Below are positions 39,110 through 64,000 of a stretch of DNA of 64,000 nucleotides, piece by piece (position 1 is the stretch's first letter; each line of letters starts with the position of its first letter). This DNA comes from Phoronis australis (lineage: Eukaryota > Animalia > Phoronida), in NCBI GenBank assembly GCA_002633005.1, contig NMRA01000079.1, forward strand, positions 1,021,182 to 1,085,181, given 5' to 3'. The notes under the pieces were generated by a model. That model was given only the letters and a program-made list of their open reading frames with translations, was not told the origin of the DNA and made no database searches. The position numbers and the translations under genes were made by a program.

Positions 39110-42100
39110 GTAAGTGCCCGGCACGTCAGAGATGATTTTGTTTAGCGATCATGACATTCGGCTTTACTAATGTTAATCAAGAAACCATGGTATATCAAAC
39201 TTTACTACTTTTGCAATACGAGACTGTGCCAATTACTTATGAATTGTCTTGATACCCATTTACTTTTATAGAAAGGTGTGCCTCACCCGCACATTAAATG
39301 AGTTGATTTGTATCAATACATATGCCTCACTGTATAATGTCACGTTCCAATACACGTCCGTGAACAGAAACGCATCAGTAGTTTGCTTTCTCACTGGCTG
39401 AGTTTTTTAAGACGTCAGGTAATCGCTGCATACATGCACGTGTACATGTACCAATCTTTTACGAGCAGGGCAGTTAGACTTAGTAAAAACGCCAGTTTAC
39501 TCCAGGTGCACGATTTCGATTGTGCCAAGTGACATTACGTCACAACACTTAACTGCACTGATGTACTTGAATGCGTAGTTTGACTGGGTAACGTGTCGAG
39601 CGAGAATTTGAACAAAAATATTCATTGGAAATAAACAAAGTAGTACTGTTAATTTATTGAATATGTGGGACTAGACAAATGAAAATTGACCAGCTCAATT
39701 ACAGTGCGAAGTATAGACTCTCACTCAAACGACATTGACACAAGCGATGGAAGGGGCGACGGAATGCGACGAATCGTTCGATTAGCGCTTTTCTTCTCCA
39801 AAACCCTGATGGACTCTTGGGTGAACAAAAAGAACAGACCAGCCACCGACTTAACTGACCATCTGCAGTCGAAATTTCTGCAAAAGGTAATGGAGTCTGG
39901 ACCTGCAACTTCATTGTAGAGAAAAATTTAGCAATGCATTCACTGCTTGAGACTTATGGTTTCAAAAATCGTCCAATGCCGAAGAGGGTTCTCATTTCAA
40001 AACTGATCAATGTCTGTTTTAGCTCTTCAACAATTTGTTTACGGGGTCTCGGTTTGGAGGACACGAGGCCCTTTGGAAAAATGTGAATGCGTCCTCTCAG
40101 CTATTTACACGTACACGTATAGGAGCAGCCTGTACACTCATACATGTATGAGCTAGTTCAAACTCACTGCGTGTACATGAATGATAGTGACTGCCACGTG
40201 ACAATGAAACAATTCATTCAGGCAACACAAGAGTTTTTCACCTGCCAACAACCTTTAAGATGTCTATCAGCAGCAAACTGAGGTATCAACAACTTCAAGT
40301 CGCAATTTCGCCTTTCAACGAAGTAGAACAACCAACTTCAGAACAAGTTTCAGTGCGGACCACTGAACGATTAACTACAATACGTTTAATTACTTTTCTC
40401 AGTTAACAAAGGCATCGTTCCACATTTCAGTTTAACAAGCTGTGGGCCGAACCTCAGTTGGGAGCAGGGATCGACATTAGATTTGAGATTGTAAATATCC
40501 GTTACCTGACGGCCCGTGAAGAGGTAATCTGATCTGTTGTCGCTCACAAGTCACGCCAGTATTAAAATTGTTGTTGGTGTAAAATCAAGTGACATTGAAC
40601 ACGAGACAACGGTTTTGGTTAATGTGACATACATGTAAGACCTAAAACAGAAAATTGGATTGAAACGATCCCATTTCACAATTAGTGAAAAAATGATAAG
40701 CGCATCAAATTTAGACATGATTTATAGAAATTAATTTGAAAACTCTCAGTCACTTTTCATAAAACAGCTTCCTGTGTCTGTTGAAAATCACTATAAAACA
40801 TACATGCATATGTAGTGCCACAGAACCAAGAATGTTAACGCCGTATTAATGCACATGTATAAACGTACACATGTGTCCTAAATCCAAGGCAGATATATAC
40901 ATGTACATCTACTGTTCATTTGATTCAATAGAAATGAGTCCACTCTATCTTTTTTCTTTAATATAGGCAGAGTTGAAAAACCTGCAAGGAAATCTGAGAC
41001 CTGCCAGAGGAGACTCCGCTGGTCTAGTGGCCTTTTGTGACTGGGCAAAAAAACAAAAATCCGGGGAAGACCAGTGGGATATACCAGCGTATATCGTAGA
41101 TAAGTAAGTTTTTGTAAGCTTTAATATGTTTCCTTTCATGCAGACAGAGGGGTTGGCAGCTGGACGCCAGTTTCTTTAGTTACAAACACTTTCTTAAAAT
41201 TGTCACCAATAGATTAGATTTGAAGGTACATGTACATGTAGCCTGGCAGTGAGAGTTAAACATGCCGTCGTCATTTTCTACCAAATCGGTGATACATGTA
41301 CACTGTAACTGCGTGTAAATCATACGAATATCTACATATAGTGCACACGAGTGCCGTAATATCCATCAGCACATTGGAAAAGAGCGGGTATTATTTCCTA
41401 CTCTAACTCTGGGCGGGGAGAGTCTCCCTGCGTACATTGTGCACTTATAAAATGTTTATCACTTCCCGTAAATCTATTTTGTTGGCCGACAAGCAAACTA
41501 TTCTAGTCTTGTGACAATAACTGCAGCGTAAAAGATAAACTGTAAGTTTTGTCATTTTCAGTGAACGTTAAAAATTCCACGGTGAACAATTTTCGAATAG
41601 TTGTGCCAATTTCGACTAAAAATTTAACAATTTTAAATTGAAACTTGAAAATTGCTAAATCATGGGCAATCCTTTTATCTCACAGATCATCGGACTCTCG
41701 CACGTGACCTAATTGGCCACCTCGAGACTAGTCGCGAGAGTTTGCACTGAAGATTTCCGGCCACCTACTCGACTGAGCTTTGATCGAATCAAACCAAATT
41801 TCACTTCTCATTTTCATTTTGTTTTATTTTTCATCAAGTGAGACTCTTGAGGTACGGTAAACTCAGCGAAAAACCTCGCCAAAGTTAGTCAGCAAACCCC
41901 ACAATTACATGTACACTCAGTGGTCATTTCTCATAAGCGCCGACCTGCCGGGAGTAGTTTGTCCTCTGATGTCTTTTTAGCTCCAGTCCTACAGTACATG
42001 TAGAAGTACTTTTGACAAGCTATTATACATGTACTACATGCCATGAGTGTTTCAACAAGACAGATGCTGGTGTTAATTTTTTTATAGTAAGAAGCTACAT

Positions 42101-42283
42101 TTGGCCTAGATAAAAAGTTAAGGCCCTGAAACAGGTGTGTTTACTTAACTCTCAAGCAAATTACTCACAATTCCTGAGCTAAGTGTAAGCGTGGGAGACT
42201 GCGTGTTTGTGGGTGTGTGTGTGCGTGCGTGCGTGTTTGTGTGTGTGTGTGTGTGTGTGTATGTTTGTGTGTGTGTGTATGTT

Positions 42284-42314
<31 letters not shown>

Positions 42315-45300
42315 GTGTGTGTGTGTGTGTGGGTGTGTGCATGTATATGTGCGTTTGCGTGAGCGCGTTTGTCTCTGTGTGTAATTACTTTTTTCAATTG
42401 TTTCTATACTTCATTTGTGCAATGTTTACCTTTTGTCGATATGCCGTTTTTTGATAATTTTATTACAGAGAAGTAGCTCTCCTGTTGACTGTAGTATTTA
42501 CGTATACAGCTGTACCAGCGAAATGAAATTTCAAAAATGAAAAGTTTACATTGTAAAAGAACCGAACCCAGTGCTTCATATTACTGACAGTGTTTATTGT
42601 ATTTGCCAATTGCCCTGCTGTTGTCTCACTGTCACATTTTTTATTTTTTCCGCCATCTTGCTACACCACCAGAATGTCCCAATTTTTGACGCACTGCCAA
42701 ATGAATTTTTGCATACATGTGCATGTACTATTTTAATTTCCCACGTGACCTAGCCATATTTTCTCGCTGGACTGAAAAGAAACAAACCAGTTTCCCTTTC
42801 AGATATAAAAACTGCAACGAAAAACTAGAGCTCTTTTTGGAATTTTCGGTGTTAAATCTCTCTTTCGACAAAATAGATTGTCGGTACGTCACTGTGAGTT
42901 GCAGCGAACACTTCACTCTTACGTTTGGTTCTAAATATCCCGTTATATATGTTCTGCAGCGGCAGACCTTCGTTTTCAGTAAGGGGGCGTTTGGGATTCG
43001 CGCGGGTCCAAGGAGGGGGCTTTGTAGCTGATTTCGTTTTCCTGGTGACTTTTTTTTAATTTTTATTTCTGATCCTGTCACAGGGGCTGTGGTGTGAACC
43101 CACTGAACCCCCCAGTAGATTTGCCGCTGTACTAAGTCCCAAATTGCAATCCAGTTGTGCTGTTTTTCCTTCTTGATTGTTGACCGTGACAACTATGCAA
43201 CAGGTGTTCAAAATTACTTCTTTCTTGAATGAATATTGATATTTTTTTAAGAATCCACTTTCTTTAGTAACGTAACAATCACAAAATTGTGTTGCAGTGT
43301 CTCTTTTTACGGTAACATACACTACATGTACAGTATCAGAATGAGAAAATAGTTACACAGTTCCACACGACGAAGATTGCTTGTACTGAAAATGTGCACG
43401 TACATGTACTGTACATGTACTTACACTAATAGGAAACGGCAACCGGATTCCCTTAGTCGCGACGCAGTAGGAGAAGCGCGGAGTGGTATGAAAGCAGTGT
43501 GTGGCTCAAACTGCTTGGTGATGAACGGCCGAGTGGTGCATTGGCGATTTGAGCCGATTTACGCAAATCTGCTTGCACACGAAGTAGGCCATATGTAAGT
43601 AATTATGTTTACTCTACCTTCCGAAACTTAGTATAACCGTGAAAAGTTATTTTTGTATGAAATATTGCAACGTAGCAAGGAGAACAGGAGCGTCTGGTCA
43701 CGGGTGTTGCCCCTAAACGGTGACAAAACTAAATGGTGGATTAGTAAAGTTGTTGAGGATTCCGTACTGGTTAGCGGCGTGTAATTGTCGGTGCAGTTAG
43801 TCACGACCTAAGAGGCGGCCCTGCGAATTTGGTGACAGCACGAGCAACCTAAATGAGCGCGGAATGCACAACGTGATGAGTACTGGATGCTCATCAACAA
43901 CGATAGTGAGCATAAAAAGAAGGGCGGGGGGGGGGGGCAGTCAGTTGTACATGTACGCTTCGCTTCTTCTCGATGATAAACTTGGCTACATGTTTGTGTT
44001 CGTGAGACCGAGGATGCCCGTTAAAGGTCTCAGTGGAGCGACTGAATACGTGTAGTTTCGACAATCGCCGATAGACCACGTTTACCACAGCTATACATGT
44101 AGCTACGATTTTCCACACGGCACCAAAGCAAATATTAGGGAAATCCTTTGCAAGCTTACTAAAGTAGCAGGATTTTTGCGATGTGATCACATTTCACTGA
44201 CTATTTTGTCACATACAGTCAATCTGTCAAAGTGGGTCCTGGGGAACTAAACACAAAATAAGAGACATGTAAAACAAGTGAAATCTCGATAACAGTCTAT
44301 TCTGGCCCGGCGTATACATGTACTTATATGACTGTAACCTCTACTCGGTATATGTACAGTTTTGTACCTGCTTTTCTCGTCTTCAAGCATCGAATATTCT
44401 ATCTGTCCCACCAAGCGCATCATAAAACTTCCTATCAACTACTGCTTGTGTGACAGAGCTGGAAGTTCGGTCAATTATTTGCGTTTATATTTTCCTGAGA
44501 CCTGATTGGTTGGAAGTATTGGCTTGGTTGACACGTCATGATAGAGATCAATACGGACCAACGCTAGGACCTCTATAAAAATAAGACTTCACTAGAGTAC
44601 GTGAGATTTTCTTTTTTTATAAGAACAAGTGATTTTGGTTAGATTACTCCGTCGCGAGACAGGTACTGAACTCTATTCAGAACTATCCGTTCCTTGCAAG
44701 TATGTCGAGAAAAGGCAACATCACATTAACGGAGACACATTTTACAACTGCTTAAACTGATTTATCGTAGAAGCAACTTCTTGGGGACGATGCGACTTTA
44801 GTGGTATACATGGAGTCGAAACAATAGATAAAACTTCTGCATGATTATAACAAACCTGGAATAGGTGCTAGATTATGGGTGGAGCCTTTAGCTTACTACT
44901 AGACTTATAGATTGAAAGTGCGTTTAGAATTATACTCTTCCGGCGTGTTACTTAGTTTTAGCTTTGGTTACAAGTCCAGAAAAAGGCACCTCGTATTTTA
45001 AGTATTTTCGGTTGTTATGGTTAGTCTTATCTTAGTTGCAATGCGTTTCTCATTTCTTTAGTGCAACATGGCCATTCAATGTTCAATAATTAAATATTAT
45101 AAATTAAATGAAGTAGGCATAAGTTGTCTGTGTGTTGTAGTGAACAATTACCTATACAGTGTATGTTATACGTTACAAAGCCTTACGTTAAAGTTCCATG
45201 AAAGATTGCGGATTAACCGTGGCTAACCTGCCATGGCAGGTTGGGATAATCTAGAAATATGTCAACCAACTTGAGCTTGGAAATTGTTTCGTGAATGTCA

Positions 45301-48300
45301 CTGAAATGAGGATCGCATAACGCAAAATGTAATTTCCACTCTTGTCATTTCACCGTGCTATGTCAATATCTATTAAATGTGACACTAGCAATGTTAATAC
45401 GGATTGTATTTCCTTGTTTAAGCACGATTGTTCGTTTTTCATGGTTGTGTTGTAGTTTGGACTTCCAACATCCTCCCGCTGAGTGTCACGAGGACATCAT
45501 GAGATCCCCTGGGAGATATAGTGTGTGGTCAGAGTGTACGAAAAAGAAAGCCCGGAAATTGTTCGGGTGAGACTATCGAAATGCTGATCCATTAACGGCT
45601 TTGGAGAGTTTATATACCTGTGTGTACATGTAACCACCGTTGCTAAACTAAACAAAGTTGATTTTGTAATTGTATTTTTCACTGATCAACACTTCCTGGA
45701 ATTGTGTGACCAATCATCTCTTACAGCTATTACACCTGGAGAGAGTTCTTCGTTTCCATGTGAACATAGTAGAGGGCATATACATGTAGTACACATCATT
45801 TTCATTTGACAAATTGCACCAATGTGATATTACTTAACCGGTTGCTATTTTACATAGTCGTCTCAAAATTGATCACGTAGCCAACCGACCAGAGCGACGT
45901 CATTCGTGAAAATGGTAATTGGTACAATGAACACATCCAATAACGTTGTCACAGTCTCCATCGTGTCAACATCATCACTAACCATCATTATCATCACCAG
46001 CAGCATCGTCATCGCCTTCACCGTCATTAACACCACCATCATTATCAGCGTCTTCCTAATATCAAGATTATCACCGTCAGCATCCTTGGCATACTCATCA
46101 CCGTTACAAATATGACCGCCATAACCATTGCCCTCAGCACCACCGCATTCACCATCAGTATCGTGTCACCATCTTCTTTGTCATCGAAAACGTCATAGTC
46201 CACTTTAGTACAACGCCCAAAAGTGGATGTTCATATCAAATAAAAAGAAGTGCTGTTTATTATAACACATAATGTTTCGAGGCCTGTCTTTTCAATGGCT
46301 ATACATTGCACAGAGAAGGGGGGGGTCTCACTTGCGTTACTTCCAAACATTTAGGGCTTCTCTAAGATGTACTTATTCAAATACTGCGAAAAGAAACTAA
46401 CTTTAGAGGGAGATATTGCGGCCTCATTATATTTCCAGTATATAATAAGTTTATTATATAGTCTGATTATGATCTTTCGGGTTTTATTTTGAATATTCAA
46501 CTAAATGTTTGCTACCTGTGAACTCCGTACTAAGACTTGACTTCCTCATTAGTTTTGTTGTTTTCCCCGTGTACATCTGTGTACTTTAGTTTGTTTCACT
46601 GCACATATAATCGCCTGTAATACAATTTAGTTCTTAATTTCACAGAAAACATTTCGAAAGTAAAGACAGTGATTTCGAATTCTCACTAAAAGAGAACATA
46701 TTTATGTACAAAGTGTAAAAGGATATGGATGTTTGAGTTATAATAATAGGTACATGTATTAGACAGTGACAGGTTTCGTGGCGGTTGACATAATCACACG
46801 GATCGAAATCGGACAATCGGTAGAAGTATTGGGTTCAGTTCATAAAATTTGGCGTTGTGTTTAAGGTTAAGTTCATGTTTAGGTGCAGGGTTAGAATTAG
46901 GGGGAATGATCTGGTTAGGTTGGTAGGACACGGTTAGGGTTAGATTAGGCATCTATGTGAATTCGTGTGATATCATTTCCTTTAGATTTTATTCCGTGGT
47001 ACGCGTATGTATCACGTCACAGTAACTTCATGCTCGCTGGAAAATTTGGTAACCCATGCTGCGTGTCCACGTGCTTTTACGCGGCGTGAACGGTGTAAGT
47101 TGATTTCAATCCAGCTCCTGTTGTCTCCCATTATAGGAATCCTTGGGTTTATCCGTGCTTAGTTTATCAGCACGGAACAATGCCTCCGCCAACTGCCCGG
47201 CCCGGACGGGTTTCGCAGGAAGATCTTGCAGTGATTAAGCAGACCTGTCCCAGCGGCAAAGTGGGTAGTCACATGGATTTCGATGATCAGCATTCTTTTT
47301 ACGCTAATGATTACTTCAAATGGAACGATGTGGCGCCCCAGTGGGTAAGAATCTGCTGTTCCGGAGATAGCCCTGCTTTCTTATGTAAACATTAGTTAAT
47401 TCAACCAACAAGCGCATGCATGTACAGCAATATGAAACTTAATTAAGTACATCAAGGAAATTAAAACATTATGGAGCCCTATGAAGTCTACGGTGCGACC
47501 ATTCGTGACATTATTTAAGAGAAACTCTTAGTTTCATGTGTTTATTATAATGGAATTAGTCCCCTCACATGTACATCCCGTATGTTTAATGTTCAACGGT
47601 ATGTATCACAGATTTGTTGATGCCTGTGATCGAGCGGGAATAACCGATCTCTGGTTAAACTTTCAGTGGCACAAGGAAAACGTCTGCAAATGGCGGCCTT
47701 GTCGAACGGAAGACGGACCATCCTATTACGCTTTGACGCCGTTGACAGGATATCGTTGTGGCGTTAATAAGGTGCTACCGTAACACTGTTNTCACGTCAC
47801 AGTAACTTCATGCTCGCTGGAAAATTTGGTAACCCATGCTGCGTGTCCACGTGCTTTTACGCGGCGTGAACGGTGTAAGTTGATTTCAATCCAGCTCCTG
47901 TTGTCTCCCATTTCAGGAATCCTTGGGTTTATCCGTGCTTAGCTTATCAGCACGGAACAATGCCTCCGCCAACTGCCCGGCCCGGACGGGTTTCGCAGGA
48001 AGATCTTGCAGTGATTAAGAAGACCTGTCCCAGCGGCAAAGTGGGTAGTCACATGGATTTCGATGATCAGCATTATTTTTACGCTAATGATTACTTCAAA
48101 TGGCACGATGTGGCGCCCCAGTGGGTAAGAATCTGCTGTTCCGGGGATAGCCCTGCTGTCTTATGTAAACATTAGTTAATTCAACCAACAAGCGCATGCA
48201 TGTACAGCACTATGAAACTTAATTAAGTACATCAAGGAAATTAAAACATTATGGAGCCCTATGAAGTCTACGGTGCGACCATTCGTGACATTATTTAAGA

Positions 48301-50458
48301 GAAACTCTTAGTTTCATGTGTTTATTATAATGGAATTAGTCCCCTCACATGTACATCCCGTATGTTTAATGTTCAACGGTATGTATCACAGATTTGTTGA
48401 TGCCTGTGATCGAGCGGGAATAACCGATCTCTGGTTAAACTTTCAGTGGCACAAGGAAAACGTCTGCAAATGGCGGCCTTGTCGAACGGAAGACGGACCA
48501 TCCTATTACGCTTTGACGCCGTTGACAGGATATCGTTGTGGCGTTAATAAGGTGCTACCGTAACACTGTTGGAATCTGTTTTTGATGTTCTGCACGCGGA
48601 CACGATGAAACGGAATGATGAAACTTGAGCACACAAAGTCCCTTACACATTGTTGTTCGAATTTCAGAAGGAGAAAGGTTTAAAATGTGTAGGCAAACAG
48701 TTTCCCATTTCTTTAACATGGACCAATCGCCAACAAAAATTAAATTCACCAGAAAAAAAGTGTTACATGCATTATACACGTATCCTGACGTGCATACTGC
48801 CATTTGTATTCTGGATGCAGACATTGTATTCAAAAGGTCTGTCGCTATTAATATTTTAAAATGCGTTCTTTCATTCTTTGAAAATCAATATTCAAAAACC
48901 TATTCATATTTTTTCACTATGTCATGAGTGCCTCGTGGAAAGTACTTTCTGAGAACGTTGTCCATAGGTAGTTGCTATGTGACGTACATATAACAACTTG
49001 TATTTTTCAGATATTACATTAGAACCTCATGGATTAAACATGAAACTTCTTAAATTTTATCATTTAATTTTTTCCGCAACTATGTATAATATTCATTACG
49101 CCACATCTTAAATGTCATTTGTCATATAGTGATTTTACTTTATTTCTGTTTCTGTTGACGGAGGACATTATTACATCCGAAAATTTCAGTTGATTCATTC
49201 TTGTTGTTTTCATTATTTACCTATTTATATTTCAGATATGTGATAATGAGACGAGTTGTGTATCAGCCGGAAATTCTGGTTGTGGAGCGACACGTGACAT
49301 GGGAGGAATAAAGGGCTTGTTTTCGTCGTACAAGTACACAGAGCGAAGTCATTACCTTCCTAACTTAAAGTGTGCCTGGAGAATTACAGTTCCAAAAGGA
49401 CAAAGAGTAGAGGTAAGTGAACAGGATTATGCAGTTGAATTTACCGTAGAGTAAGTCAATACAAAATACATGCAATCTTCAAAAGAAGCCTGACAACGTC
49501 CAGTGTTGACAATGTTCCAACGCTCAAAACCATGGGGTTAATTTCCGCCAAATCTCACCAGATGGTGCTCCTGAAATTATTTACAACTTATCTTGCAACA
49601 CATTCACATAAGGAGGCGGGGTTAGAAACGCCACGATCAACTCTGGCAAAAGTACGACAAAAACATTCTAGTGGTACGAAAGTTCAACTTAACTGCCACA
49701 CAGTTCTGGTAGGAATTGCAATCAAGATTGACAAAGTCTCTGTTGAAAAGTGATTTAAATGTATATGGATTTAAGCGTTGTGTTGTTTTTCTGAGTGGAG
49801 TAACAGATTGAGTTGTACGCTCACGTCACATTTAACACTGTTAAAACTATTTTACTAAAAATGGTTCCAGTGCTACTACGTGTACATGTACCTGGAATTC
49901 TGAGGAATGGGCTCATCATTTAACCAAAATACTACCTCGTCGTGGATACGGTTTACCCATTTCAGCAGTCATGTGGTATCTGGCCTTAAAACCGACTGCA
50001 AATTGACGTAGATTTTGCAAAGTTTGTAACGAGCTATGAAACGATCCCCATACTCAAGTTTTAATCCTGTGGAGTAAAAGTGGATACAACTCAATGATAT
50101 ACAAAACATTTACTAGTTACAAATATAATAACTCCTGTTTCAGTATCACTCCAAAATTTAAAACGAGGCTCTGCGTGGTGTGCACTGTGGGTTCATGAGT
50201 TACTTCCGTTGATTTCAGCTGAGTTTCTTGACTATGGACGTTCCTGGCCTGGCCTATTGTGGAGTCAACCAGTACGGGGGAGATAGCGTTGACGTTTACA
50301 ATGGGCGTGACACCAACGCATCACTAGTTGCATCGCTGTGCAACGGCATCTTGAAAACTGTCAAATCGACGCCAAATGTCCTGTATGTGACGTTTAGGTC
50401 AGACAGGCATGATCTCATAACAGGGAAGGGCTTCGTGGCAGTTTACAAGTCAGTGTGA
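39073..50458 (+). CDS. Gene C: secreted ADAMTS-like zinc metalloprotease with Cys-rich and CUB domains, 483 aa; join(39073-39109,39705-39886,40431-40523,40967-41103,43433-43594,45456-45566,47137-47344 [or 47917-48124],47667-47771 [or 48447-48551],49236-49412,50219-50458)
   Basis: 10 exons total 1452 nt open frame; N-terminus [12 protein letters not shown] signal-like; HEVGHILDFQH, DIMRSP; exons 7-8 appear twice around an N. Confidence 0.9.
39705..39886 (+). CDS. Gene C coding exon 2
   Basis: [32 protein letters not shown]...FLQK|gtaatg; 182 nt. Confidence 0.85.
40431..40523 (+). CDS. Gene C coding exon 3
   Basis: [31 protein letters not shown]|gtaatc. Confidence 0.9.
40967..41103 (+). CDS. 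Gene C coding exon 4
   Basis: [45 protein letters not shown]-aa|gtaagt. Confidence 0.9.
42200..42380. repeat. (TG)n microsatellite
   Basis: Direct reading. Confidence 0.95.
43433..43594 (+). CDS. Gene C coding exon 5 (HExxH)
   Basis: [32 protein letters not shown]...LLAHEVGH-at|gtaagt. Confidence 0.9.
45456..45566 (+). CDS. Gene C coding exon 6
   Basis: gtag|[36 protein letters not shown]-gg|gtgaga. Confidence 0.9.
45950..46200. repeat. Degenerate (CAT/CAC)n low-complexity tract
   Basis: catcatc/caccac-rich decayed trinucleotide repeat. Confidence 0.65.
47137..47344 (+). CDS. Gene C coding exon 7, copy a
   Basis: [26 protein letters not shown]...VAPQW|gtaaga. Confidence 0.8.
47667..47771 (+). 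CDS. Gene C coding exon 8, copy a
   Basis: [35 protein letters not shown]|gtgcta. Confidence 0.8.
47917..48124 (+). CDS. Gene C coding exon 7, copy b (probably the other allele)
   Basis: 780-nt offset copy of 47137-47344 with 4 substitutions. Confidence 0.7.
48447..48551 (+). CDS. Gene C coding exon 8, copy b (probably the other allele)
   Basis: Identical to 47667-47771. Confidence 0.7.
49236..49412 (+). CDS. Gene C coding exon 9
   Basis: [21 protein letters not shown]...[20 protein letters not shown]|gtaagt. Confidence 0.92.
50219..50458 (+). CDS. Gene C coding exon 10
   Basis: [10 protein letters not shown]...[14 protein letters not shown]; AATAAA at 50489 and 50519. Confidence 0.92.
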   Translation: MSFLTMDVPGLAYCGVNQYGGDSVDVYNGRDTNASLVASLCNGILKTVKSTPNVLYVTFRSDRHDLITGKGFVAVYKSV

Positions 50459-53400
50459 TTCCTTTCTTCGTAACAGAAAAGCAATGATAATAAACCCATG
50501 ATACATTTGCTAAAGATGAATAAAGAAAAGTGAAAATGTGTCAAGATGTAAATTAATTGTGTTAGTTGCACCTGCAATCTAGTCGCGACACCACTTATGC
50601 TCCATCACAAATAGTCCAAGTCGGCAAGAAGACCCACTTTACCGCGAATTGATTTTTAAAAAAGCTTATTTGTGTACCGTTACGCAGGTGTTTATTATAG
50701 AGAAAAAAAACGTAGTGTGAGAGAGATAAAAAACATATGGAACATTTTGCTCAGGATCTGAGGTCAGTCCACAGGGGTACATGTACATGTAGGTTGTTTA
50801 CACAACTGTTAACTAAGACCCAGCATGAAAACTTCTGTATGCCAGGCCACAGAAATTGGTGTTCTTCAATGGAACTATTTTAAAGTGTGCAGAGAGTGCA
50901 CATCTCTACCGCTAGCTTTTTCTTGGTATTGATGCTTGGTGATATAAATTTATTTATTTCAGTATCAGGTTTCCCATAACAAAAAATCCAAGTATTGAAG
51001 GATTATTTCACTTCTTTGTTAGGGAAGTCGAAGGTCGCGGGCGGAATACGTGCACATCGCAGGGTAGACAAATTAAAAGAAAAATTGCTTCGCATGTGTC
51101 GTTTTTTACCGTGAACAGAGTTTACGCTTTTGTGATTTGTACGTGTATCCTGCTAGATACAAAGCAATCGAAGCTACATGTACTCTTTCAACGTCATTTC
51201 ATTTATAAACTTCGTCAAACGGATTTCAATGCGTGATAGTTCATTCAAAGCTAATGCTTAAATGATGCTTATTCAAGACAACCTGAACTACATTAAAACT
51301 TTGAGTTCAGACGTACACCATCACCTAAATATCTGCCATAGTGAGTGACCCTGAGCTAACTCTTTCAGTTTGGGTTTTCTGTAGTGATAACGCAAAAACT
51401 CCCACAAAAATAAAATCAAATTATTTGTAAAATAAGGCCAATACAGTCGTGGCTGTAACTTCAAAATTATTGGTATTTTAGTGACATTTTTCATTTTTCG
51501 ACTGACAGAACTACTTTTTTTTAAATTGTTGAGTGATACGGAAGGGTATAGGCACAAAATGCTCTGTTGCGTATTTACAGACTTGAGCCGTCATATCTTG
51601 AAAATACCTATAGTTATTTAACACAGCACTGTCCTCAGACATAGTATAGTCCGGTTACCTATTGTCGTCAGGCTCCAAAGGTCGTCCGCCATCTTGTTTC
51701 GCGTGCAGCGCAACCATGCGGGACTTAGCGTTCCAATTTGGAGTGCTCGTCTGCACGTTAGGTACTAACTTATCGGAAGAGACATGTATCAAAGTAATGA
51801 GACAAAAATCGGTGAGTTTACCGATTGTTTTTTAAAACCACTTAAAAATCAGTAGATTTTACTAATACACTTTTTTGTGCGTTTTCAGAAGATGTTTTCG
51901 AATTTAAATTTTCTTCCGACGGGACACAAAACATGATCCAGGGTTTGTTTATGCAATGTATCTGTTTGTCCCAGGCACTAGTAGGATCTAGAAGGCCAAA
52001 GGAAAAATCCGCAGACAAATGCGATACGCTGGGTTCTTAACATTTTTGCCTCACGCATTCACCATTAAACTGCATTGAAATGTTGTCCAATTGGCTTTTA
52101 TTGGAAACCACAGTGCAGAGCTCAACATCAAAGCTTCAAATCGAGTTTATGTCAATAAAAACAGGCTGTTGCAATTTTCATTACTTCGTTGGCCTTTTTC
52201 TGCATGTTTCTCAGTTTTTACAAAAGGGGGCAGCATATGACGACCTTAGGTGTCACAATAAAATGGCTGCCGAAGGCAGTGCACATTTGAAATAACTCGG
52301 CACAAATTAAAGAAAACTTCCGAATCGATGAATGCGGTATATCTGTGAGAGTTAAATCGAATCCTATTCAGATCATAACTTTGAAGTGGAATAATTCGGT
52401 GAGTACAACAGCAAGTCGGTTTTATGCTTAGGCGGACGACCATTGGGTTCCCGAGTATACATATTGTAACACCAAACACCATGGCTGTACAGTAGTGGGT
52501 GGGAAAAGTTATATGTAAATCAAACGTGTTTAAGAAATCAACCTCAAAATTTAGGGGAACTCAAAGGTCTGAAAATAGCTGAAACGGAAGTCTTACGGTT
52601 CGCCATGTTTTTAATTGTGGTTCCTAAAGATTTCGAATTTCTGCGTATGGCAAAGCACGTCTCCGTGCGAAGCAATATACGGCTGTGCACTCACATGCAG
52701 ATAACATGCAGATCTATACAAATAAAGCCCTACTGACAGTAGTAACATAAGCGGTTATATAGATTGAAGCACCGCAACTACGACAAGAAAAAAACATGCC
52801 AGTTACAGTGGCATTCACACGACGCAAGTCTGATTTTACACAACAAAACTCTGCCAATTCCTAAAGCCGTCAAGAGAACATAGACTATCACCGCATGTGG
52901 TCCCTCGTTACCCGGCGAGTCACGGTTTATCCAAGCTTCGTACAGTTATGTGCCTCAACTCTTCACTTGACCTATCGCCAGGGTTTTGAGTGACGGCTTA
53001 ACTGACCATTTAAAACTCATCATTCTTGACACACCTTCGTTTCCAAGCCGCCATTTTACCCGACAAACAACACGTTGCCGGGTAACACTTATTGTTCGTT
53101 AGTCGACATTACGCAAGGAGGCGCAGCTTCCGAATTGGTAGCATTCACCCAATAGCCGGGCTTTACGCAATCGACACAAGGAGTTCTAAGACACGCAATG
53201 ATTCGGATGCAGCCTGAAAACGCGCGTAAATGGTAATAAAATATCAATAATGATAATAATGATAAAAATAATGACAATAATTAGTAATATCCAAATAGAA
53301 AGGACAAATATAATTGTTATAATAATTTCATACTCTGTTACAAAGTAATAGTAATAAACATCACAATAATAATGGGAATGACGATGGTTATAAAAACTAC

Positions 53401-54099: not shown

Positions 54100-56715
54100 T
54101 ACATGTATCTACCCGTACCCTTCACGCCAAGGCCCAGTATTAGAAAATGGGATGTAGATGGCACCCGAATAGTTCGAGATCGTGACAACAGTCAGAGCAG
54201 AGGATGGAGTCGGACAGTGGACTGAAATAATCGACGAATCGCAACGGCACAAAGCTTTCATGGGTTTGGAACATATAAGGCAGAAACGAGTACCAATACC
54301 AGAGATAAAATCCAGTTAGCATAATTATAATTAGATACTTGTATGATCGTCCCTGACCAACACATTCGGCATTCGAAGATATGAAATGAGTGTCCGCTAT
54401 TCGCGACTGAGCTTCGACAGTCCGGGTACAAATTTCGGTTAGCCTTACAATTTGAGACACATCTTACTCGACACTAAACTTGGTAGAAAATGTAACCGTG
54501 ATTCAATAAAAGGCTTTAATTACCACTCCGAAATTAGGATTGTCCGTAGGCTGAGTACATGTAAGCTCCGACTCAGTTTCATTCACCGAAGACACCGGTG
54601 CATAAGGGTTGAGTTTGGACGGCCTTAAACACGCAAAGTCTGCCGATACGGCGAGGTCTAACTCATTAGCTGTTTGACCTAAGGTCCGAGTGTCGCCTTT
54701 ACCCCCATCGCCATGGCTGGTTTCATATTCGTCAGGCTCGCTCAGTAAGTCCTCGTAACTTATAAAATCACGACTATCGTCCAATGCATATACAGATACT
54801 GTCAACTGATCAAGGTCTACTATTGATGACACAACGAGGTGGGAAACCAAAAAATCCTGATTTTTGCTTTTAAATTTGAAACTTCCAAATATTTCTCAAA
54901 GTAAGTGCTTGTTTAGATACATTTTTGTTATAAATTTATTACACACGGTATAAAACCTCAAAAAGTGAAACCTTCCATTGTAAGAACGCTTTAAGTTACA
55001 ATGACTGCAATGTAAGTTAAGTCAACCATACACTAAGGTGGCATCTAGGGTGGCCTCGAGTTTACGGATTTATGTGAGTTGTGAATGAGATTCCAACTTA
55101 AGTGGATCTTAAGGCAAGGGGATTCGAGATAGCCGCCCCTGGATGGAGGAATGGACCTGCCGTTAGAGAAATAACAAGGAGTTCTCCAGCCAGTTCCACC
55201 CGGCGTAGCTTCGGATGCCATTATCTGTGACGTAATCGTAAGACATGTGTCGGACTGTAAGGTTTGGGTGCATCCCAACGAGCAAGAAACAGCGGATAGA
55301 TGTGGTCCACGATAACCTCAAGTGACTAGGAATGTAAGAAATCAAATTTAAGGCAGTCCGACTAAGTGAACATGGTGCATGGACGAGGTGAATACTTCGA
55401 GGGTGAAGTTAGCGTAGAGATGTATGGAACATGGAGTATATGGGTAATCAATTAGTACTCCACTCAGTACAAGACCTTTTGTTCATTTCGTAGCAATCGT
55501 CTGTGTCGCTTGTGTGAAAGATGAGGAACATTGCCTCATGCCCTATCAGTGGATACGGCGGAATTTCTGCATGTGGCGTCCCGACATACACTAGATGGTT
55601 AGAGGAAGGAAAGAGGAGTGCAGCACATGACAAACACTCACATTCATTTCGTCAGTGCAGGTGTGCGACTAAAGTAAGCATGTCAGTAGTCATGCATTGT
55701 AAGCGGGGTAAGATTGGAGTTGAGAGCCGACCTGTGAAGAAATTTAGTTTTTCCCAGGGTAGTGGAAACCAGTCTACAACCTGAGCGGACGCTTTGGTCA
55801 GAAGCCAAGCAGTACATACAACAATATACATGTACTTGTTTAGTATTGAACTTTAAATCCGCTGAGAGGAGAGATATGACAAGGCGCAAAAGAGGAAGTT
55901 ATCAAAGTACATTGAAGTACCTGAAAAGGGTGGCAAACTTGATTTTGTTCTGCTGAAGAGGCATGAAGATGGTTTCCCACATGGTCCGTTTGGTGGTTGC
56001 TGGAGAAGCTTGGTGTAAGAGGGAAGGCGAGGAGAGCAACAGTGATAAGGAGAAAACGTCATGCTGGCCGTGGTACCATCGTAGTGGGGGAACTTATAGG
56101 TCGCAGTGATGCACAGTGGGATAGCCACCACAGCACTGCAGACCCAACAGTGGGATAGCCACCACAGCACTGCAGACCCAACAGTGGGATGGCCACAACA
56201 GCACTGCAGACCCACCAGTGGGATAGCCACCACAGCACTGCAGATCCAACAGTGAGATGGCCACCACAGCACTGCAGACCCACCAGTGGGATAGCCACCA
56301 CAGCAATGCAGACCCAACAGTGGGATGGCTACCACAGCACTGCAGACCCAACAGTGGAGATGATAATGCTTTGGGTCGAAACGTGTCCAGGAAACTGAAC
56401 GCCATCTAACGACGGGCTCGACCTAGAACGTACATAGGCCCCAGACCCAAGAATAGATGGTGACAAGGCGTGGCAGCTATTATCGAGGCAGAAAGCATCT
56501 GTGTAATTTCATGCACCATTGACACGTAGAAAAATTCTGAATCAAATTCGTCACAGTGACGCGTCCCTTTTTTAAACTTCACAAACATCAGTTTTACAAT
56601 AGTTTTTAAAATTCCATTACATTTTACTTTGTACATTCTACATTTTGAGGCGTGTACATCATGATGCTGGCCACTCAAACCTCGACTCGAGTTTGACCTA
56701 TTGCATGCCGTCACA
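54100..56715 (-). mobile_element. Heavily decayed Ty3/Gypsy-like LTR retrotransposon remnant
   Basis: On - strand in Gypsy order: TGTGACGG start at 56715, TGGCG (PBS-like) near 56404, gag-like KFPHYDG (~56090), RNaseH-like IPPYP...FLIFHTSD (~55550), integrase-like SIH..ANFTLEVF and QIMA..ATP..TG..TP....GR..P (55430-55140); no second LTR confirmed. Confidence 0.45.
56113..56357. repeat. 34-bp minisatellite, 7 copies plus partial
   Basis: Unit acagtgggatagccaccacagcactgcagaccca, period 34. Confidence 0.95.
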
Positions 56716-56885
56716 AATTGAGAACGCTTGAAAACTCACAGCTTAAAGACACGTGACCGATTGAATTCCCAGTTTGAGATAAAAAATTAGATCCTGGACC
56801 ATGGTTGGATTGTAAAAAAACGTCGTTTTAAGTAACTAGCATTTGAATTGTGTCAACATAGTAATTTCCAGGCCACTCTGTTAAT

Positions 56886-56922
56886 ATGCAGTTGTTACCA
56901 GTGGCAGTATTTCTAGGGACCG
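56886..56922 (+). CDS. Gene D coding exon 1 (signal peptide)
   Basis: MQLLPVAVFLGT-g|gtgagt; 37 nt; acceptor tttccag ends 56871. Confidence 0.82.
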
Positions 56923-59900
56923 GTGAGTACGCGTATGAGGGTTATACGTGAAATTTACAAGAGCAAACATTAGAATGGAATAAATTTTAATAAGAAGAAC
57001 GTCATGGTATTTTTTAACAATTTTATTGTGTCAGTATATATTGTGAATAAATGTACATGTACTTGAAAGTCAATTGTTCGTTAAAATTTGAATAATTGCA
57101 TTTGAATCGTTGACCACGTTTGCCTTTTGCCTACTTGAATTGTGAGAGCAAATTGCATCAACTGAGTTTTAAGTCACCAGTGCGCATAATATGTAACGAT
57201 TAAGGGATTTTAACAAACCCTTAAGTTCAAAGTCTGCGGCTTTCATTTGAATACAGACACCAATCAGCTTTGTTTGTTGCATGATATACCACGATAGTGA
57301 TATTGATGTTGAGGTAAAATTGTGAAGACAGTTTAATAAAACTCGTGCCCTTATGATACACGTCCATGCATTTTTTGCAGAAGTCGCATTTCTATCTTAC
57401 AAACGTGAAACATTCTAGAGAACGAAACATACCTCAATCAAAATGTCGTCCCCACATTATGCACACGTGTTACTCAGTTTCAGTGCAAGGCCGGAACGAT
57501 GACCAATACGGTGCCAGAACACGCACAGGCGACGGTGCAGGAATGCAACGGGTTGCTAGGATTGCCCTTTTCTTCTCCAAAAGTCTCATAGACCCTTGGG
57601 TAATCAGAAAGAGAAAGACAAGAGAGGAATTAACGAGCTATTTGCAATCTAAGTTTCTGCAAAAGGTATTGTTGTTGTAACGTACGTGTACAAGAACGCT
57701 AGATTTTCAATTGCTTCTCTCGAAAACATTTTTCGAAGCATCTGCCAACACCCAGTGTTTAAAACGCCACATATTTTCTCAGTTGCTGATCCACTATTTT
57801 AACTTGAAAGCAAGAGAAAAGTCAAAGTCTCGACACCAATTTTAACCAAGCATCCGCCTCAAAAACAGTAACGAACAAAACCGATTAGCCTATAGCCAAG
57901 TTGAGAATACATGTACACTGGTACAGCGCTGAAGAAAAGAACTAATTTGTAGCAAATATCTATTTTCGTATACGTAATACTTGTGAATGACGGAACTTAA
58001 AGCATTAAACTATGTCAGGGCAAATAACAAAATCGATGTGCTTACTGAGAATCCAGTAATTATGTCATATTGGCTCAAGTGAAATACCCCAGCATTTGCG
58101 ACCCGCATATAGAAAACGTGGACTGTGCAGATTATCTCCAACATACTGTCGTTATAAACTACTATTGAAGCATTTGCACCCTGCATTCACAAAATAACAG
58201 ATCATATTTAAGTTATACGCGGTGTTTGTTTGATGTAGGTGCCTTTCAGGTGTCAACTTACATGTATCTACATTGTATACAATTCGCTGTTGGCCAACTG
58301 TGATGCCTGAAACTAGTGAATTTCTGTTTTCTGCGCAGTTCACGTAGTCAAGGCCCTGTTAATCGCTATCACATTTTAACTTTTAAGTTACTTAACCATT
58401 TATTTCAGTTGAATGCCTTATGGGCAGAACCTAAGTTGGGAGCTGGCATCGATTTGAAGTTTGAAATTGTGACAGTACGTTACATCACAGCGAATGAAGA
58501 GGTAATCAACAATTGATATTTAATACGCAGCTGTGTAATGCCAGTGTTTTAATGGCAAGCAATGTGGAGTATGTTATCAAATAATATAATCCAAACTACA
58601 CCAAATCGATCAAATTATTTGTGAATATTGCACAGTGTGGCTCTTATATATTTCCCGTTTATCGACCCTGAACGGGATTTCGAGGAAATACCTTCCAATT
58701 AGCAGGTAGAGCGACCTGAAAATGACATTGCGCGTTTCTTTTCTAATTGACTCAGAATCTCGAGCTTCCGAGTTAATTTTAATCTCGGGACTTCAAGATC
58801 ACGACTAAGGACTGTTGGAAAAATAAACTGCAGACGTGGTCAGACCCCGCTTTACTATCATTATTAGCGGCACCTTCGGCGTTTGTAGTCAATACTTAAA
58901 ACTAGCGCGTATAGTAACAATTATTCAAACATTGACGATGTGACAGGTTGAAAAATATCTGAACCAATGCAGCAACATGGTTATAGATTCGGGCACCATA
59001 AATGTGTCACTAATGGCTTAGTTGTGAAACGAAAACTGTGCAAATAATTCTTCCTGCTGTCCATACAGATGTTTTGACAATGCAGCACACCAGAAGACTG
59101 CGACAAACTGACGAATATTATCTGGGGATCTTGAGATCCTAAGATAATTTGGTCAGGATCTCGAGATCGCGAGATAAATATGTCGGGACCTGGGATAATT
59201 AAAAATAAATGCGCGATGTCATGTTTGGACCACTGTACACGGGGGATAACTGAAAGTTTTATTATCTAAATGTTGACTGAAAGCTGTGTGTAATTTTGTC
59301 AATAGGCGGAGCTGCAAAGAAGACAACGGCAACTCAAACCAACCAATGGCGGTTATTCTGGTGCAAAGGCATTTTGTGATTGGTCAAAAGAGCAAATGAC
59401 TTCACGTGATCAGTGGAATATACCAGCTTATATCATAGACGGGTAAATCTGCTAAAACTCATTGAAGAGTGTTCGTCTTCTCGACACTTTCCGAATAGTG
59501 CGAGTAAAGACCGATTACTGACATGGGAAGGCATAGGAAGCAACGATTAAACAACCTAATAGATACCCACAGTTTTGATGGTGGTCCCTTTAAAGAAAAA
59601 TTACTTAGAATTTATACACTGCACCTATTTTTATTTTTTATTTCAGTCCAACAAAAATTCAGGTTAGTTGAACATTAACATAATTGCTGAACATACGAGC
59701 TTACATTGGAGTGCCGTGCAATTTACTCTATGCTTGTTAATCATTACGTTTAAAAGGATACGGCAGGCAGATTTCAACGCCCGCACCCCAGGGCGTGCAT
59801 TCGGCATGAGGCAAGTGTGCGACAAAAACTGCGTTGTAATCGAGGGCAGAGTCGCTGACTGGAGGTTCGAGCCGCTTTTCACAAATCTTCTTGCACACGA

Positions 59901-62900
59901 AATAGGTCACATGTAAGTAAGTTGTTTTTGTAGTTTAGTGCCTAACGTTATGCTCTTACATGAAGTAGACTTGCTCTTTCTCTCTTGCTACACGAAATGC
60001 ACACCTGGATTCTGTACACCAGTTTCTCTTCTTTTTCTCAGAAACTTGATGACTTAAAGTTTTTGCACATGTAAAATATCATATTGCAAAGTATCCAACA
60101 CACATGCACAACTGCCCTGACAACTGCAATTATATAACAGTGTGCACATGTACCCTTGCATTTCTACTGTATGTGCAATATAACAGAGCCAATTATGAAA
60201 GACCTCCATGTAGTGCAGATAACAATCCCGGTGTCACTAGTTAACGGGCTACCTTAAAATAAGTTTGGTGTTGAGGGATTTGCCTGCTTTTAACGAGTTG
60301 AGGAAAGTATATGGCGAGAATACGATGCATGTAATGTCACAAGCTTTGGTTGAGAGAACAGTGTGTTTCAGAACTGTATCAGGTGTGTTGTTAATACTGC
60401 GCTAAGAACATTCTTACATGTACGTGCAGTGTTAGCGACCAGAAAAATGTAGCCAAAGTTGCTTTTTCTCATTTAAAATACGCGACAAAATGTCATGTAA
60501 TCTCCACGACATCCTGCTTCTTAGCAAGGTCCTGGAGTTACTGAACTCTACCCAGACATGTTGCCATTGCAGTTTTGGCTTTGACCACCCACCTCCTGGG
60601 TGTAGACAAGGGATCATGTGGTCTCCAGGAACAAGTGATGAATGGTCTACATGCATAAAGCAGAAAGCGCTGGAAATATTCGGGTTAGTCATTTCCACAT
60701 GTAAGCCCTGTCTACTTAACTCTGATGTTTTCGTATAGCTACTTTGTTATCGACTGTAGCACACGTATAAATAATGTTTAGAATTTTTAATTCGGACACG
60801 ACAATCAGAGCATGTCAACAATGGTCTAACAGTTACATTGTGTGTCGTATTCTACTGCGTGTTGGACGAAAGACCCTCCTCTCTGACACAGCGCCACCTG
60901 TACTGAAATTGGCCCTGTGGAAACATGATGAACACACGGAATTGCGTGTGTGCGGATCAGTGCGCATGCCCAGGTCGGAAGATTACCGATTACATTGCCC
61001 CCACGTTCACACAACTTTATGCATTTTATTTATTTAGGCTTAAGCCACTGGATCGAGGATCTCTTGATTTTGTTTACTTCCAACACTACACGTTTTAATA
61101 AAACGCAACTACTCAAGTTAAAGATGATCGTCATACTTGATAACTGTAAACTGAAAGGGGATTCCCAACTTTCAACAAATGGGAATTACTGAATGTTATG
61201 ACGCCGCTTTCTTTAATTTAACAAATGAGAAGCCAACACAAGACAATGCTACCTGTCGTAGCACTGTGAAAGAGTGTAATAAGACACTAACACGATTGCA
61301 CTATTTTCTTGTTTGTGAGAGGTGGTGAATTCTATCAAAATTAAACCCATAGACATGTTTATTGGGACAATCGCGCTCCTAGTGACGTGTCCACAAATGT
61401 GTTCTACAGTTGCAATATATATGGACAATTAAAACTGCAGTATGTATTTATTCATAAAGTGAACGAGTGTTTTGTTGAAGCAACCCCTGGGTTTACCCGT
61501 GTATGGCTTACCAGGAAGGGATAATGCCGGCATCGACTGTTCCGCCTGGGAGAGTTTCTGAAGAAGACCTGGCGGTGATTAAAAAGAACTGTCCCAAAGG
61601 TGAAGCCGGTGTCCACTCAGGCTACAGCGGGGAAATGTTCTTCGAAAATGGCTACCTTGACTTATATAAGAAAGCGCCTGAGTGGGTAAGCAACTAAGAA
61701 CTGAAAATTTACCGGACCACGATAGTACCCGAGTGAATGTACGTTTTGTGTTCTGGTATGATGAGTCACTTATCAAAACAGCACAAGGATTCCAATGAGC
61801 AACGTCGTCATTATTTGTTTAATTACACCACCACGTCACGATCGAGGTTCGCATATCAAAAAATTTTGTTCCTCTGTAAGAATGGCGTTCTACGCTGCAC
61901 CAACGTGCCTGTTCGTACGCGTGTTACGCATATTTTGATGCAAGTGTATTCTAGTTTCGCCTACTCCAATTGTAAAAGAACCTATCGGGGTACTCGATAT
62001 CCCTCAGTTTGTGATTGACCACATAAGCATGGGGGTAAAACACTTTAACAAGTTAAGGATGTTGTCTACGCCAAAAGAATATTGTTCCTCGTGTGCATTT
62101 TTGAGGAAGCATTACTTTAGTGCCGACTTTGTTGATAGAACGGCGATTTAGATTGATCACATAGTGACACGTGCTACTATACGAAACTGATGGTGCAGTC
62201 CCTGACTATAATAAGAACCTTCGTAATCTCACGTCAACAACAACTACGGAGTTTTCTTGAACATTGTTAGGAAATAACAAATATTGTTCAAACAACTATC
62301 CTAGTTATTATTCCAGTGGCATGAAAAGAATGTTTGCAGATGGTTGCCTTGTCGCAGGGATCACCAAGGGAAGCCGGTCTTTTACGGATTATCTCCCCTT
62401 ACCGGATACAGATGCGGCGTTAACAAGGTACAGGCATTAACACTGTATATATTTTTATTTTAGTTATTTAAACAGCTAATCTATACATCAACGGGCATTG
62501 CATCCGGGCTTACAGTAAGAACTACACGTAGAACACGACTCACATGTAAATTTGGCCACCGACAGATCTACCTGTACTGTACATGTAGGCCAAGGTGCCA
62601 TTAGGAAGGAGGGCCAATTTACGTTACTTTAAGCGCGTTAGTAGGGGGAAGGCTCTACTCAACAGAATTCCGGATAAAATTTGTTCCTGGCCGGTTTCGT
62701 GTTGTTAGTCGATAGTATCTTAAGTGTTCACCAAGTGCCCGAAGCATATCAGATTTTGCGAGGGTGAAATCCTCTTGGTCACCTGCAATGGTCTGGGAAT
62801 AGCAGGTCTACTTGCAAATGGACGGTTAAGAAGAATCAAATTCATTTCTTAGTGAATACTCGGACCACGAATAACATGATATGCATTCGGGCGTTCTAGT

Positions 62901-63321
62901 TAGCTTGCAACTCGTGTACTTAGTGTTGTACCTCGAAAAGCATCTTACCCTGTGTACATATGATTCAGTAGTTCGTGCACGTGATTCCGAATCAGTGATT
63001 TGTTGTTAATAATTGAAATTGTTAGGTCCAGTGCCTCTAAAGAATGCAGACATTTTGCATAACCCGAAAGGAATCTGGGAACAAACCGAGAACAAGTTAT
63101 TGGTAATCTAAGATTTGCAGACCTACTCACGTTTTCAGATATGCCAAAGCGAAACGAGGTGTATATCCGCTGGTGAATCAGGATGTGGAAGGATTCGCGA
63201 CATTAAAGCGACAAAAGGGTCATTTTCGTCATATAACTACATGTATGACGGACGAATGCATTACCTTCCCAACTTAAAGTGCGCTTGGCGAATTACAGTT
63301 CCCATGGGACAGCGGATCAAG
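56886..63321 (+). CDS. Gene D (3'-partial): secreted ADAMTS-like zinc metalloprotease with Cys-rich and CUB domains; join(56886-56922,57478-57665,58409-58501,59306-59442,59757-59912,60573-60683,61481-61685,62317-62427,63139-63321), exon 10 beyond window
   Basis: 9 exons in open frame; MQLLPVAVFLGTVSVQG signal-like; HEIGHIFGFDH, GIMWSP. Confidence 0.9.
57478..57665 (+). CDS. Gene D coding exon 2
   Basis: SVQGRNDDQYGARTRTGDGAGMQRVARIALFFSK...FLQK|gtattg. Confidence 0.88.
58409..58501 (+). CDS. Gene D coding exon 3
   Basis: LNALWAEPKLGAGIDLKFEIVTVRYITANEE|gtaatc. Confidence 0.9.
59306..59442 (+). CDS. Gene D coding exon 4
   Basis: AELQRRQRQLKPTNGGYSGAKAFCDWSKEQMTSRDQWNIPAYIID-gg|gtaaat. Confidence 0.9.
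59757..59912 (+). CDS. Gene D coding exon 5 (HExxH)
   Basis: IRQADFNARTPGRAFGMRQVCDKNC...LLAHEIGH-at|gtaagt. Confidence 0.92.
60430..60555. mobile_element. Copy of the 34641-type MITE family just upstream of gene D exon 6
   Basis: aaggtcctggagttactgaactctacccag end matches 9684-9711. Confidence 0.5.
60573..60683 (+). CDS. Gene D coding exon 6
   Basis: FGFDHPPPGCRQGIMWSPGTSDEWSTCIKQKALEIF-gg|gttagt. Confidence 0.92.
61481..61685 (+). CDS. Gene D coding exon 7
   Basis: NPWVYPCMAYQEGIMPASTVPPGRVS...KKAPEW|gtaagc. Confidence 0.92.
62317..62427 (+). CDS. Gene D coding exon 8
   Basis: [37 protein letters not shown]|gtacag. Confidence 0.92.
63139..63321 (+). CDS. Gene D coding exon 9
   Basis: ICQSETRCISAGESGCG...[32 protein letters not shown]|gtaaac; 183 nt (6 nt longer than paralogs). 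Confidence 0.92.
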
Positions 63322-64000
63322 GTAAACCAGTAACATTGTAAGGTTGCATGCGGTCTATCCATCTTCGATCGCGTGCAGGTAAGGGGTGTTACAGTGTTTA
63401 CATGGAACTACTTGAAGGCCGAACAGTAAAAACAGAGAAACGTTTACATGCCGCATGCGAACTTATTACACGTTGTGTTGTGGCTACTGAGAACAGAGGA
63501 CAGCGAGCGAAGAGATTCCTACTAAGAAAATCGAAAAAATAACAAAGAGTGAACGCATGTCTTCTGATACATCGCTAGAATCGTTTTGGTTAAGTTTAAA
63601 CAGAAAATATGTGTATGTTTAAAATGACCTTGCCTTGCATTCGCTTCGCAAATTAGCAAAGGAAATGGAAGGTGTGATTGGCTCTCCCACGATCACTTGC
63701 GTTTTTTCACTGTGATATATATTTATTGAAGGATACACAGAACATACAAAGAAATAATAACAAACCCAGAAACCGCGAAGCATTATATCTGGGTTGTAAA
63801 CAATTCATAAATGAAACTTATATACATAGAGATATATACAATTAAGTAGTATCTAAAATAAGTAGTCCAATACTTAGACATGCTAATACAGATATATAAA
63901 AACAAAAATATTTACAGATTCATATAGGGAAATCAGATGCAACAATATTGATAAACGGTATATAAAAATTTGCTAACGTTGCTTAGGAGGAATTCGTTAA

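Follow-up and report, generated by a model that had tools for sequence, protein, structure and literature searches.

Transposon footprints that add amino acids to proteins are already known, from selected laboratory revertants. In maize, Sh2 Rev6 reportedly carries a Ds footprint that adds two amino acids to the enzyme, the element being a hAT transposon, the organism a plant and the phenotype a selected one. In petunia, PhDEF+6 excision alleles of dTph1 have 6 nt added in frame and two extra residues, and they are almost fully working (PMC10827313). In Caenorhabditis elegans unc-22::Tc1, imprecise germ-line repair restores an open frame in a coding exon (PMC4490562). A literature search with partial coverage found no natural in-frame TACATGTA scars in animal proteins.

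Tc1 breaks carry 2-nt 3' overhangs (PMC4490562), and the usual Tc1 scar in the worm is +4 (78%; PMC13148408). In C. elegans, the word taCATGta counts among the rare Tc1 footprints (PMC3520976, citing Eide and Anderson, 1988), and the Tc1 target consensus is tabulated as CAYATATRTG (PMC2577343). The canonical Sleeping Beauty footprint is +5, with the sequence TACAGTA or TACTGTA (PMC6943129). Mariner footprints keep element ends, and Ac/Ds footprints are palindromes of the flank (PMC4561436). PMC2872659, PMC4423477, and 10.1101/447870 have nothing specific to add.

The window analyzed here (the whole 64-kb stretch of Phoronis australis DNA) carries four paralogous genes, A to D, all on the + strand. 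The open frame of gene D runs across exons 2 to 9, and its product is a candidate metzincin-type (reprolysin/ADAMTS-like) protease by the motif HExxHxxGxxH. This zinc motif is read across exons 5 and 6 as HEIGHIFGFDH in D and is HEVGHIFGFQH in B; C carries Asp for the Gly, and A is without the motif. Exon 5 of gene A (1426-1587) has HDVGR where B, C, and D have HEVGH or HEIGH, and gene A is probably without zinc-protease activity. The last exon of gene A continues beyond the CUB domain. Pfam searches on single D exons 2, 5, 7, and 8 gave no match.

In gene D, exon 9 measures 183 nt, 6 nt more than the 177 nt of A, B, and C. The original prediction had given these lengths, and they agree with the coordinates (Table 1), with the AG/GT ends of the exon in B, C, and D, and with the alignment. 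A protein alignment of the four exon 9 translations has a single 2-residue gap, located at NYMY of D. The extra 6 nt had been placed at TACATGTA, and this word does overlap the alignment gap region. The exact place of insertion is ambiguous by a few bases, and the MAFFT gap sits after a TACA common to B and C. By alignment, the event polarizes as an insertion in D and not a deletion, since A (the outgroup), B, and C are all short.

Table 1. Gene D, exon 9 of its paralogs, and the sites in the window compared with the insertion.
Feature	Position	Strand	Remarks
Gene D, exons 1-9	56400-63321	+	RNA joints in X5 and X6; exon 1 ends at 56922, its start being nominal
Gene D, exons 2-5	57478-57665, 58409-58501, 59306-59442, 59757-59912	+	RNA joints
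Gene D, exons 6-9	60573-60683, 61481-61685, 62317-62427, 63139-63321	+	RNA joints
Gene D, exon 9 (183 nt)	63139-63321	+	End of cysteine-rich region and first half of CUB domain
TACATGTA in gene D exon 9	63238-63245	+	Frame 0; encodes Tyr-Met and the start of the next Tyr
Paralog A, exon 9 (177 nt), without insertion	16493-16669	+	Distant paralog; aligns over the same length
Paralog B, exon 9 (177 nt), without insertion	35245-35421	+	TACA at the homologous site
Paralog C, exon 9 (177 nt), without insertion	49236-49412	+	AG/GT ends; alignment
TACAAGTA in paralog C exon 9	49329-49336	+	One mismatch (a transversion) from the motif, same frame
Filled TACATGTA and empty TA	10419-10426 (filled), 9918-9919 (empty)		Copies 98.4% identical, differing by these 6 nt
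Filled site	29165-29172		Inside high-copy repeat; other copies without the 6 nt
CATGTA	39056-39061		CATGTA doubled in another allele (a segregating +6), seen in an X1 contig of depth 44 and in both X5 reads

The insertion is real, transcribed, and found in all three samples able to show it. X5 and X6 are RNA runs on samples distinct from the DNA source; in both, all eight introns of gene D up to exon 9 are spliced, including the joint 62427-63139, and a loose RNA end at 63321 leads to exon 10 beyond the window. Approximately 145 reads in X5 and 116 in X6 lie at 63257, just 3' of the insertion (18 and 10 of these, respectively, bear gene B's letters). An X4 contig with three other letters nearby crosses the insertion site gap-free. 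Assembly error at the site was ruled out because the RNA reads and the X4 contig cross it unchanged. No 6-nt deletion indicating a shorter allele of D was among the indels listed for X5 and X6 at the 5% threshold.

Expression of gene D is good in both X5 and X6, and there is no D transcript in X7 despite reads with gene B's letters, a sample-specific pattern of paralog expression. Exon 8 of D has a second splice acceptor 23 nt downstream of the first (62317-62340), use of which would shift the frame; it accounts for 10 of 72 junction reads in X5 and 22 of 82 in X6.

Removal of CATGTA allows gene D to align without gaps, as had been claimed, but this does not discriminate, because removal of any nearby 6 nt aligns too. 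The original prediction also overlooked how much of the word is present in the paralogs. B and C share TACA at the homologous site, with TA at that codon in both, and C has TACAAGTA; slippage and fold-back copying are therefore real rivals to an excision scar. Slippage would have duplicated a Tyr-Lys codon pair, and later Lys to Asn and Lys to Met changes would have given TACATGTA by chance. The in-frame TACAAGTA of C, at the homologous place and one transversion from the motif, speaks for this, as do the D branch, which at 0.31 substitutions per site is longer than those of B and C, and the excess of non-motif 6-mer tandem pairs in the window (36 vs. 16). However, the Lys codon at this site is AAA in B, the closer paralog, and the per-site rate of slippage estimated from the window is approximately 30 times below the per-TA rate of scars. 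We consider slippage an unlikely origin. In the paralog tree, the B/C/D topology is poorly supported (40 and 6.7).

A fold-back (hairpin) copy of the flank after TACA, arising either through excision of the hAT type or through templated end joining, would make the palindrome a local product unrelated to the genome-wide word. The MAFFT gap lies directly after the common TACA and the right side is mismatch-free. In addition, Ac/Ds footprints are such palindromes of flanking DNA (PMC4561436), and 12-nt palindromes without the motif number 30 in the window vs. 19 expected. Against this, the per-site rate of fold-back copying is estimated at approximately 50 times below the per-TA scar rate, and no inverted copy was recognized among the indels listed. 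As regards features of hAT-type footprints, the word found across the window has a fixed CATG core and no excess flank symmetry. A hAT-type fold-back is possible for the event in D alone, but we regard fold-back copying as quite improbable.

An excision scar requires two adjacent substitutions on the D branch, whereas an insertion after TACA requires none on that side. Across six codons, a scar needs three substitutions relative to B, a Tyr-Lys duplication needs one or two more, and a fold-back needs about as few.

The word TACATGTA is abundant in the window. It occurs 64 times vs. 2.15 expected (approximately 30-fold, a density of about 1 per kb), and none of 100 shuffles reached 64. Among TA-NNNN-TA cores, CATG ranks first with 64, followed by TATA with 29, and the next has 11. 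One-mismatch neighbors of TACATGTA number 101 vs. 39 expected, an excess that decaying scars would be expected to give. At 58 non-stacked sites, the flanks are biased to C at +1 (46/116), T at +3 (51/116), and G at +4 (35/116), with p from 2e-5 to 7e-3; this bias is in line with a Tc1-like target such as CAYATATRTG. Left and right flanks are no more mutually complementary than the flank bias predicts, which argues that the TACATGTA words are not generic fold-backs. The flanks of the site in gene D score near the middle of TA sites in general (45th percentile) and low among scar sites (11th percentile), and they give no added support. Shorter scar words are weakly raised (TACATA 29 vs. 22.6 and TATGTA 32 vs. 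23.2), as are the +5 words (TACAGTA 11 vs. 6.4 and TACTGTA 13 vs. 4.6). Longer forms such as TACAGTGTA/TACACTGTA are in excess (5 vs. 0.7). Coding DNA has one scar in 5,612 nt, compared with 6.1 expected per base or 3.5 per TA; this depletion is not significant (P(<=1)=0.14 per TA), and the exon limits of gene A are approximate.

Several arrangements of the word were also observed. Scars are stacked at 689-702, 41227-41240, 50778-50791, and 43401-43419 (three are TACATGTACATGTA, and there are mixed forms as well), and no stacked scars arose in 20 simulations. Scars may attract new insertions, as a scar's own TA fits half of the flank preference. Eighteen of the 64 scars lie within 6.6 kb of gene C introns (40141-46758), approximately 2.7 times the window average. 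The scar at 33949 is inside a small palindromic repeat element (33930-33985) with 11-nt arms. A transcription factor site reading of the word was proposed for Phytophthora (PMC3520976); an Irx or MYB-like site as the origin of TACATGTA was ruled out here because the word behaves as an indel.

The same change from TA to TACATGTA acted at other sites in the window, where there are two clear pairs of filled and empty sites and one ambiguous case. The copies holding the sites at 10419 and 9918 are probably two haplotypes with a single N between them, and this pair alone gives no direction. At 29165, contigs without the 6 nt number 19 in X1, 16 in X2, and 17 in X3, and 19 of 40 X5 reads are also without them, which points to an insertion in the window's copy of the repeat. 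The polymorphism at 39056 is ambiguous: a scar may have been stacked on a TA, or slippage could itself account for the duplication. Among the 6-nt indels listed, the one at 29545 is unrelated to the motif.

Other repeated sequence in the window was recorded alongside these sites. Near-identical tandem duplications at 9690-10696 (98.4%) and 47012-48570 (98.8%) each surround a single N (10190 and 47791). Each probably represents a pair of haplotypes placed end to end across a scaffold gap, in which case the doubled exons 7 and 8 of gene C would probably be an assembly artifact. A short, very high-copy repeat has four copies (9604-9711, 34640-34790, 44560-44640, and 60445-60554), with a summed contig depth >190,000 vs. 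approximately 40; RNA reads from both strands are abundant on it. Further high-copy repeats are at 28400-30400, 60880-61280, and 63712-64000.

An insertion process that changes TA to TACATGTA does not have to be transposon excision; a bias in repair or templated insertion with a fixed product could have made the insertion in gene D. The source element was not found in the window, and the dominance of +6 over weakly raised +4 and +5 words would suit such a process. Inverted-repeat scans of the 64-kb window for an element with TA-CA...TG-TA ends gave shuffle level only, and no allele with a full element at the scar TA was among the indels listed, although an old event would not show one. However, TA specificity and the Tc1-like flank bias fit Tc1/mariner chemistry, as does the excess of TACAGTGTA/TACACTGTA. 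A +5 allele resembling TA-CTG-TA at 27672 fits it as well, with an uncertain alignment. We regard a process other than transposon excision as very unlikely. At 27672, the other allele is 5 nt longer and reads TA-CTG-TA, a Sleeping Beauty-like +5, and it is nearby substitutions that make its alignment uncertain.

Four models of the insertion were compared under HKY rates specific to each codon position, estimated from 332 codons of genes B, C, and D. Likelihoods were integrated over insertion time and place, and sites were treated as independent. With B and C as relatives, the likelihood of a scar was 67-160 times that of tandem duplication, 45-58 times that of random insertion, and 3.8-4.7 times that of fold-back copying. 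Over all ancestor settings, these ratios were 20-250 for tandem duplication, which counts against slippage, 2.5-68 for random insertion, and only 2.6-6.4 for fold-back copying. The priors came from window counts: an excess of 62 scars for 4,707 TA and, in 64 kb, of approximately 20 tandem 6-mer pairs and 11 palindromes of 12 nt. The posterior for a scar was 0.99 at face value and 0.95 with a tenfold penalty for a null-allele phase. Under the harshest penalties (null-allele phase, young process, and boosted slippage), which are assumptions, it was 0.41-0.76. The two flanking changes were not assumed to have come about rapidly through CpG mutation, as the CpG observed/expected ratio is 0.93, indicating no depletion.

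The filled and empty pairs and the likelihoods favor the origin first proposed. We put the probability at roughly 70% that the 6 nt in gene D are the excision scar of a TA-targeting DNA transposon of the Tc1/mariner type. The element would have entered the Tyr codon at its TA, duplicating the TA. Excision would then have kept and joined both 2-nt ends (CA and TG), giving TA-CA-TG-TA and a gain of 6 nt. The resulting frame is stop-free and encodes Tyr-Met-Tyr, and the gene yields a spliced, expressed mRNA. The scar would have survived in a length-variable CUB loop of one of four paralogs, and two later substitutions would have altered the codons following it.

The two residues were added in the CUB domain of D. 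Pfam CUB matched residues 16-61 of D (profile positions 1-40) with an E-value of 5.6e-4 and 20.6 bits, just below the 21.4 cut-off for this half domain; exon 10 of B passed (E-value 6e-8, 33.4 bits). Further matches were PCPE-1 6fzv and 9en2, and the loop of D aligns with the PNW...YPP loop of PCPE-1. The position of the loop in the CUB domain was derived from alignment alone; a half-domain structure prediction of D (pLDDT 64, pTM 0.39, an isolated hairpin) was set aside. The loop, counted from the G-x-F-x-S strand to the C-x-W motif, has 16 residues in D and 14 in A, B, and C. Among 684 pattern matches in 150 listed CUB proteins, the same loop has 12 residues in 460 and 13-17 in 119; matches of at least 18 residues were mostly mis-anchored. 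Because CUB domains differ in the length of this loop, the effect of two added residues is probably near neutral, and the insertion in D was probably tolerated.

Searches for longer homologous proteins with D exon 9 and with an exon 7 alignment gave no D orthologs. An HMM search returned 175 generic CUB proteins, and the 150 listed were compared by BLAST with D exons 2-5 and 7-9; exon 9 alone matched, at 33-49% identity. In an ESM Atlas search with exon 7, every match was below 0.9, which is no evidence of an ortholog.

It had also been proposed that cycles of insertion and excision add frame-preserving dipeptides to proteins. From the genetic code, CATGTA at a TA is stop-free in all three frames, and such additions are known from plant and worm revertants. 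The 148 coding TA in exons 2-9 of B, C, and D would yield Tyr-Met (44), His-Val (55), and Thr-Cys (49). However, B, C, and D differ by seven in-frame indel blocks, of which one carries the motif and would be explained in this way.

The case in gene D is a likely natural, transcribed example in an animal gene family. At less than even odds, we tentatively suggest a wider role in this animal lineage, in which the fixed +6 scar of a resident transposon would be a directional mutagen writing Tyr-Met, His-Val, and Thr-Cys into loops across the proteome. It would then account for a measurable share of two-residue insertions, with gene D as one fixed product. A long-standing notion, that scars left by excision supply variation in protein length, becomes countable with a fixed scar sequence and three predicted dipeptides. 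A lone near-neutral loop insertion is modest, and its value is in the proteome-wide test that it defines. Where a genome is enriched in TACATGTA in this way, a check for empty sites should precede any reading of the word as a transcription factor site.

Compared with the known systems, the probable scar in gene D is closest in sequence to the rare Tc1 footprint taCATGta, which is the identical 8-nt word and has a TA target. That footprint is rare in the worm, whereas the +6 scar is the dominant word here, at approximately 1 per kb, with the element not found in the window. The unc-22::Tc1 revertants are like gene D as interpreted here in that a Tc1-type element was excised from a coding exon and the frame was kept open; they are unlike D in being laboratory-selected and mostly polymerase theta deletions with many distinct products (PMC4490562). 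Sleeping Beauty footprints likewise have element-end bases between two TA, but their +5 length (PMC6943129) shifts the frame in exons, and their words are weakly enriched here. On this comparison, the dominant +6 scar is not canonical for Tc1 or Sleeping Beauty. The petunia PhDEF+6 alleles resemble gene D in having an in-frame 6-nt footprint that adds two amino acids, although dTph1 alleles are laboratory revertants with an 8-bp target duplication and varied footprints (PMC10827313). Unlike them, gene D has a natural insertion, present in all samples examined, with the fixed sequence of a TA scar.
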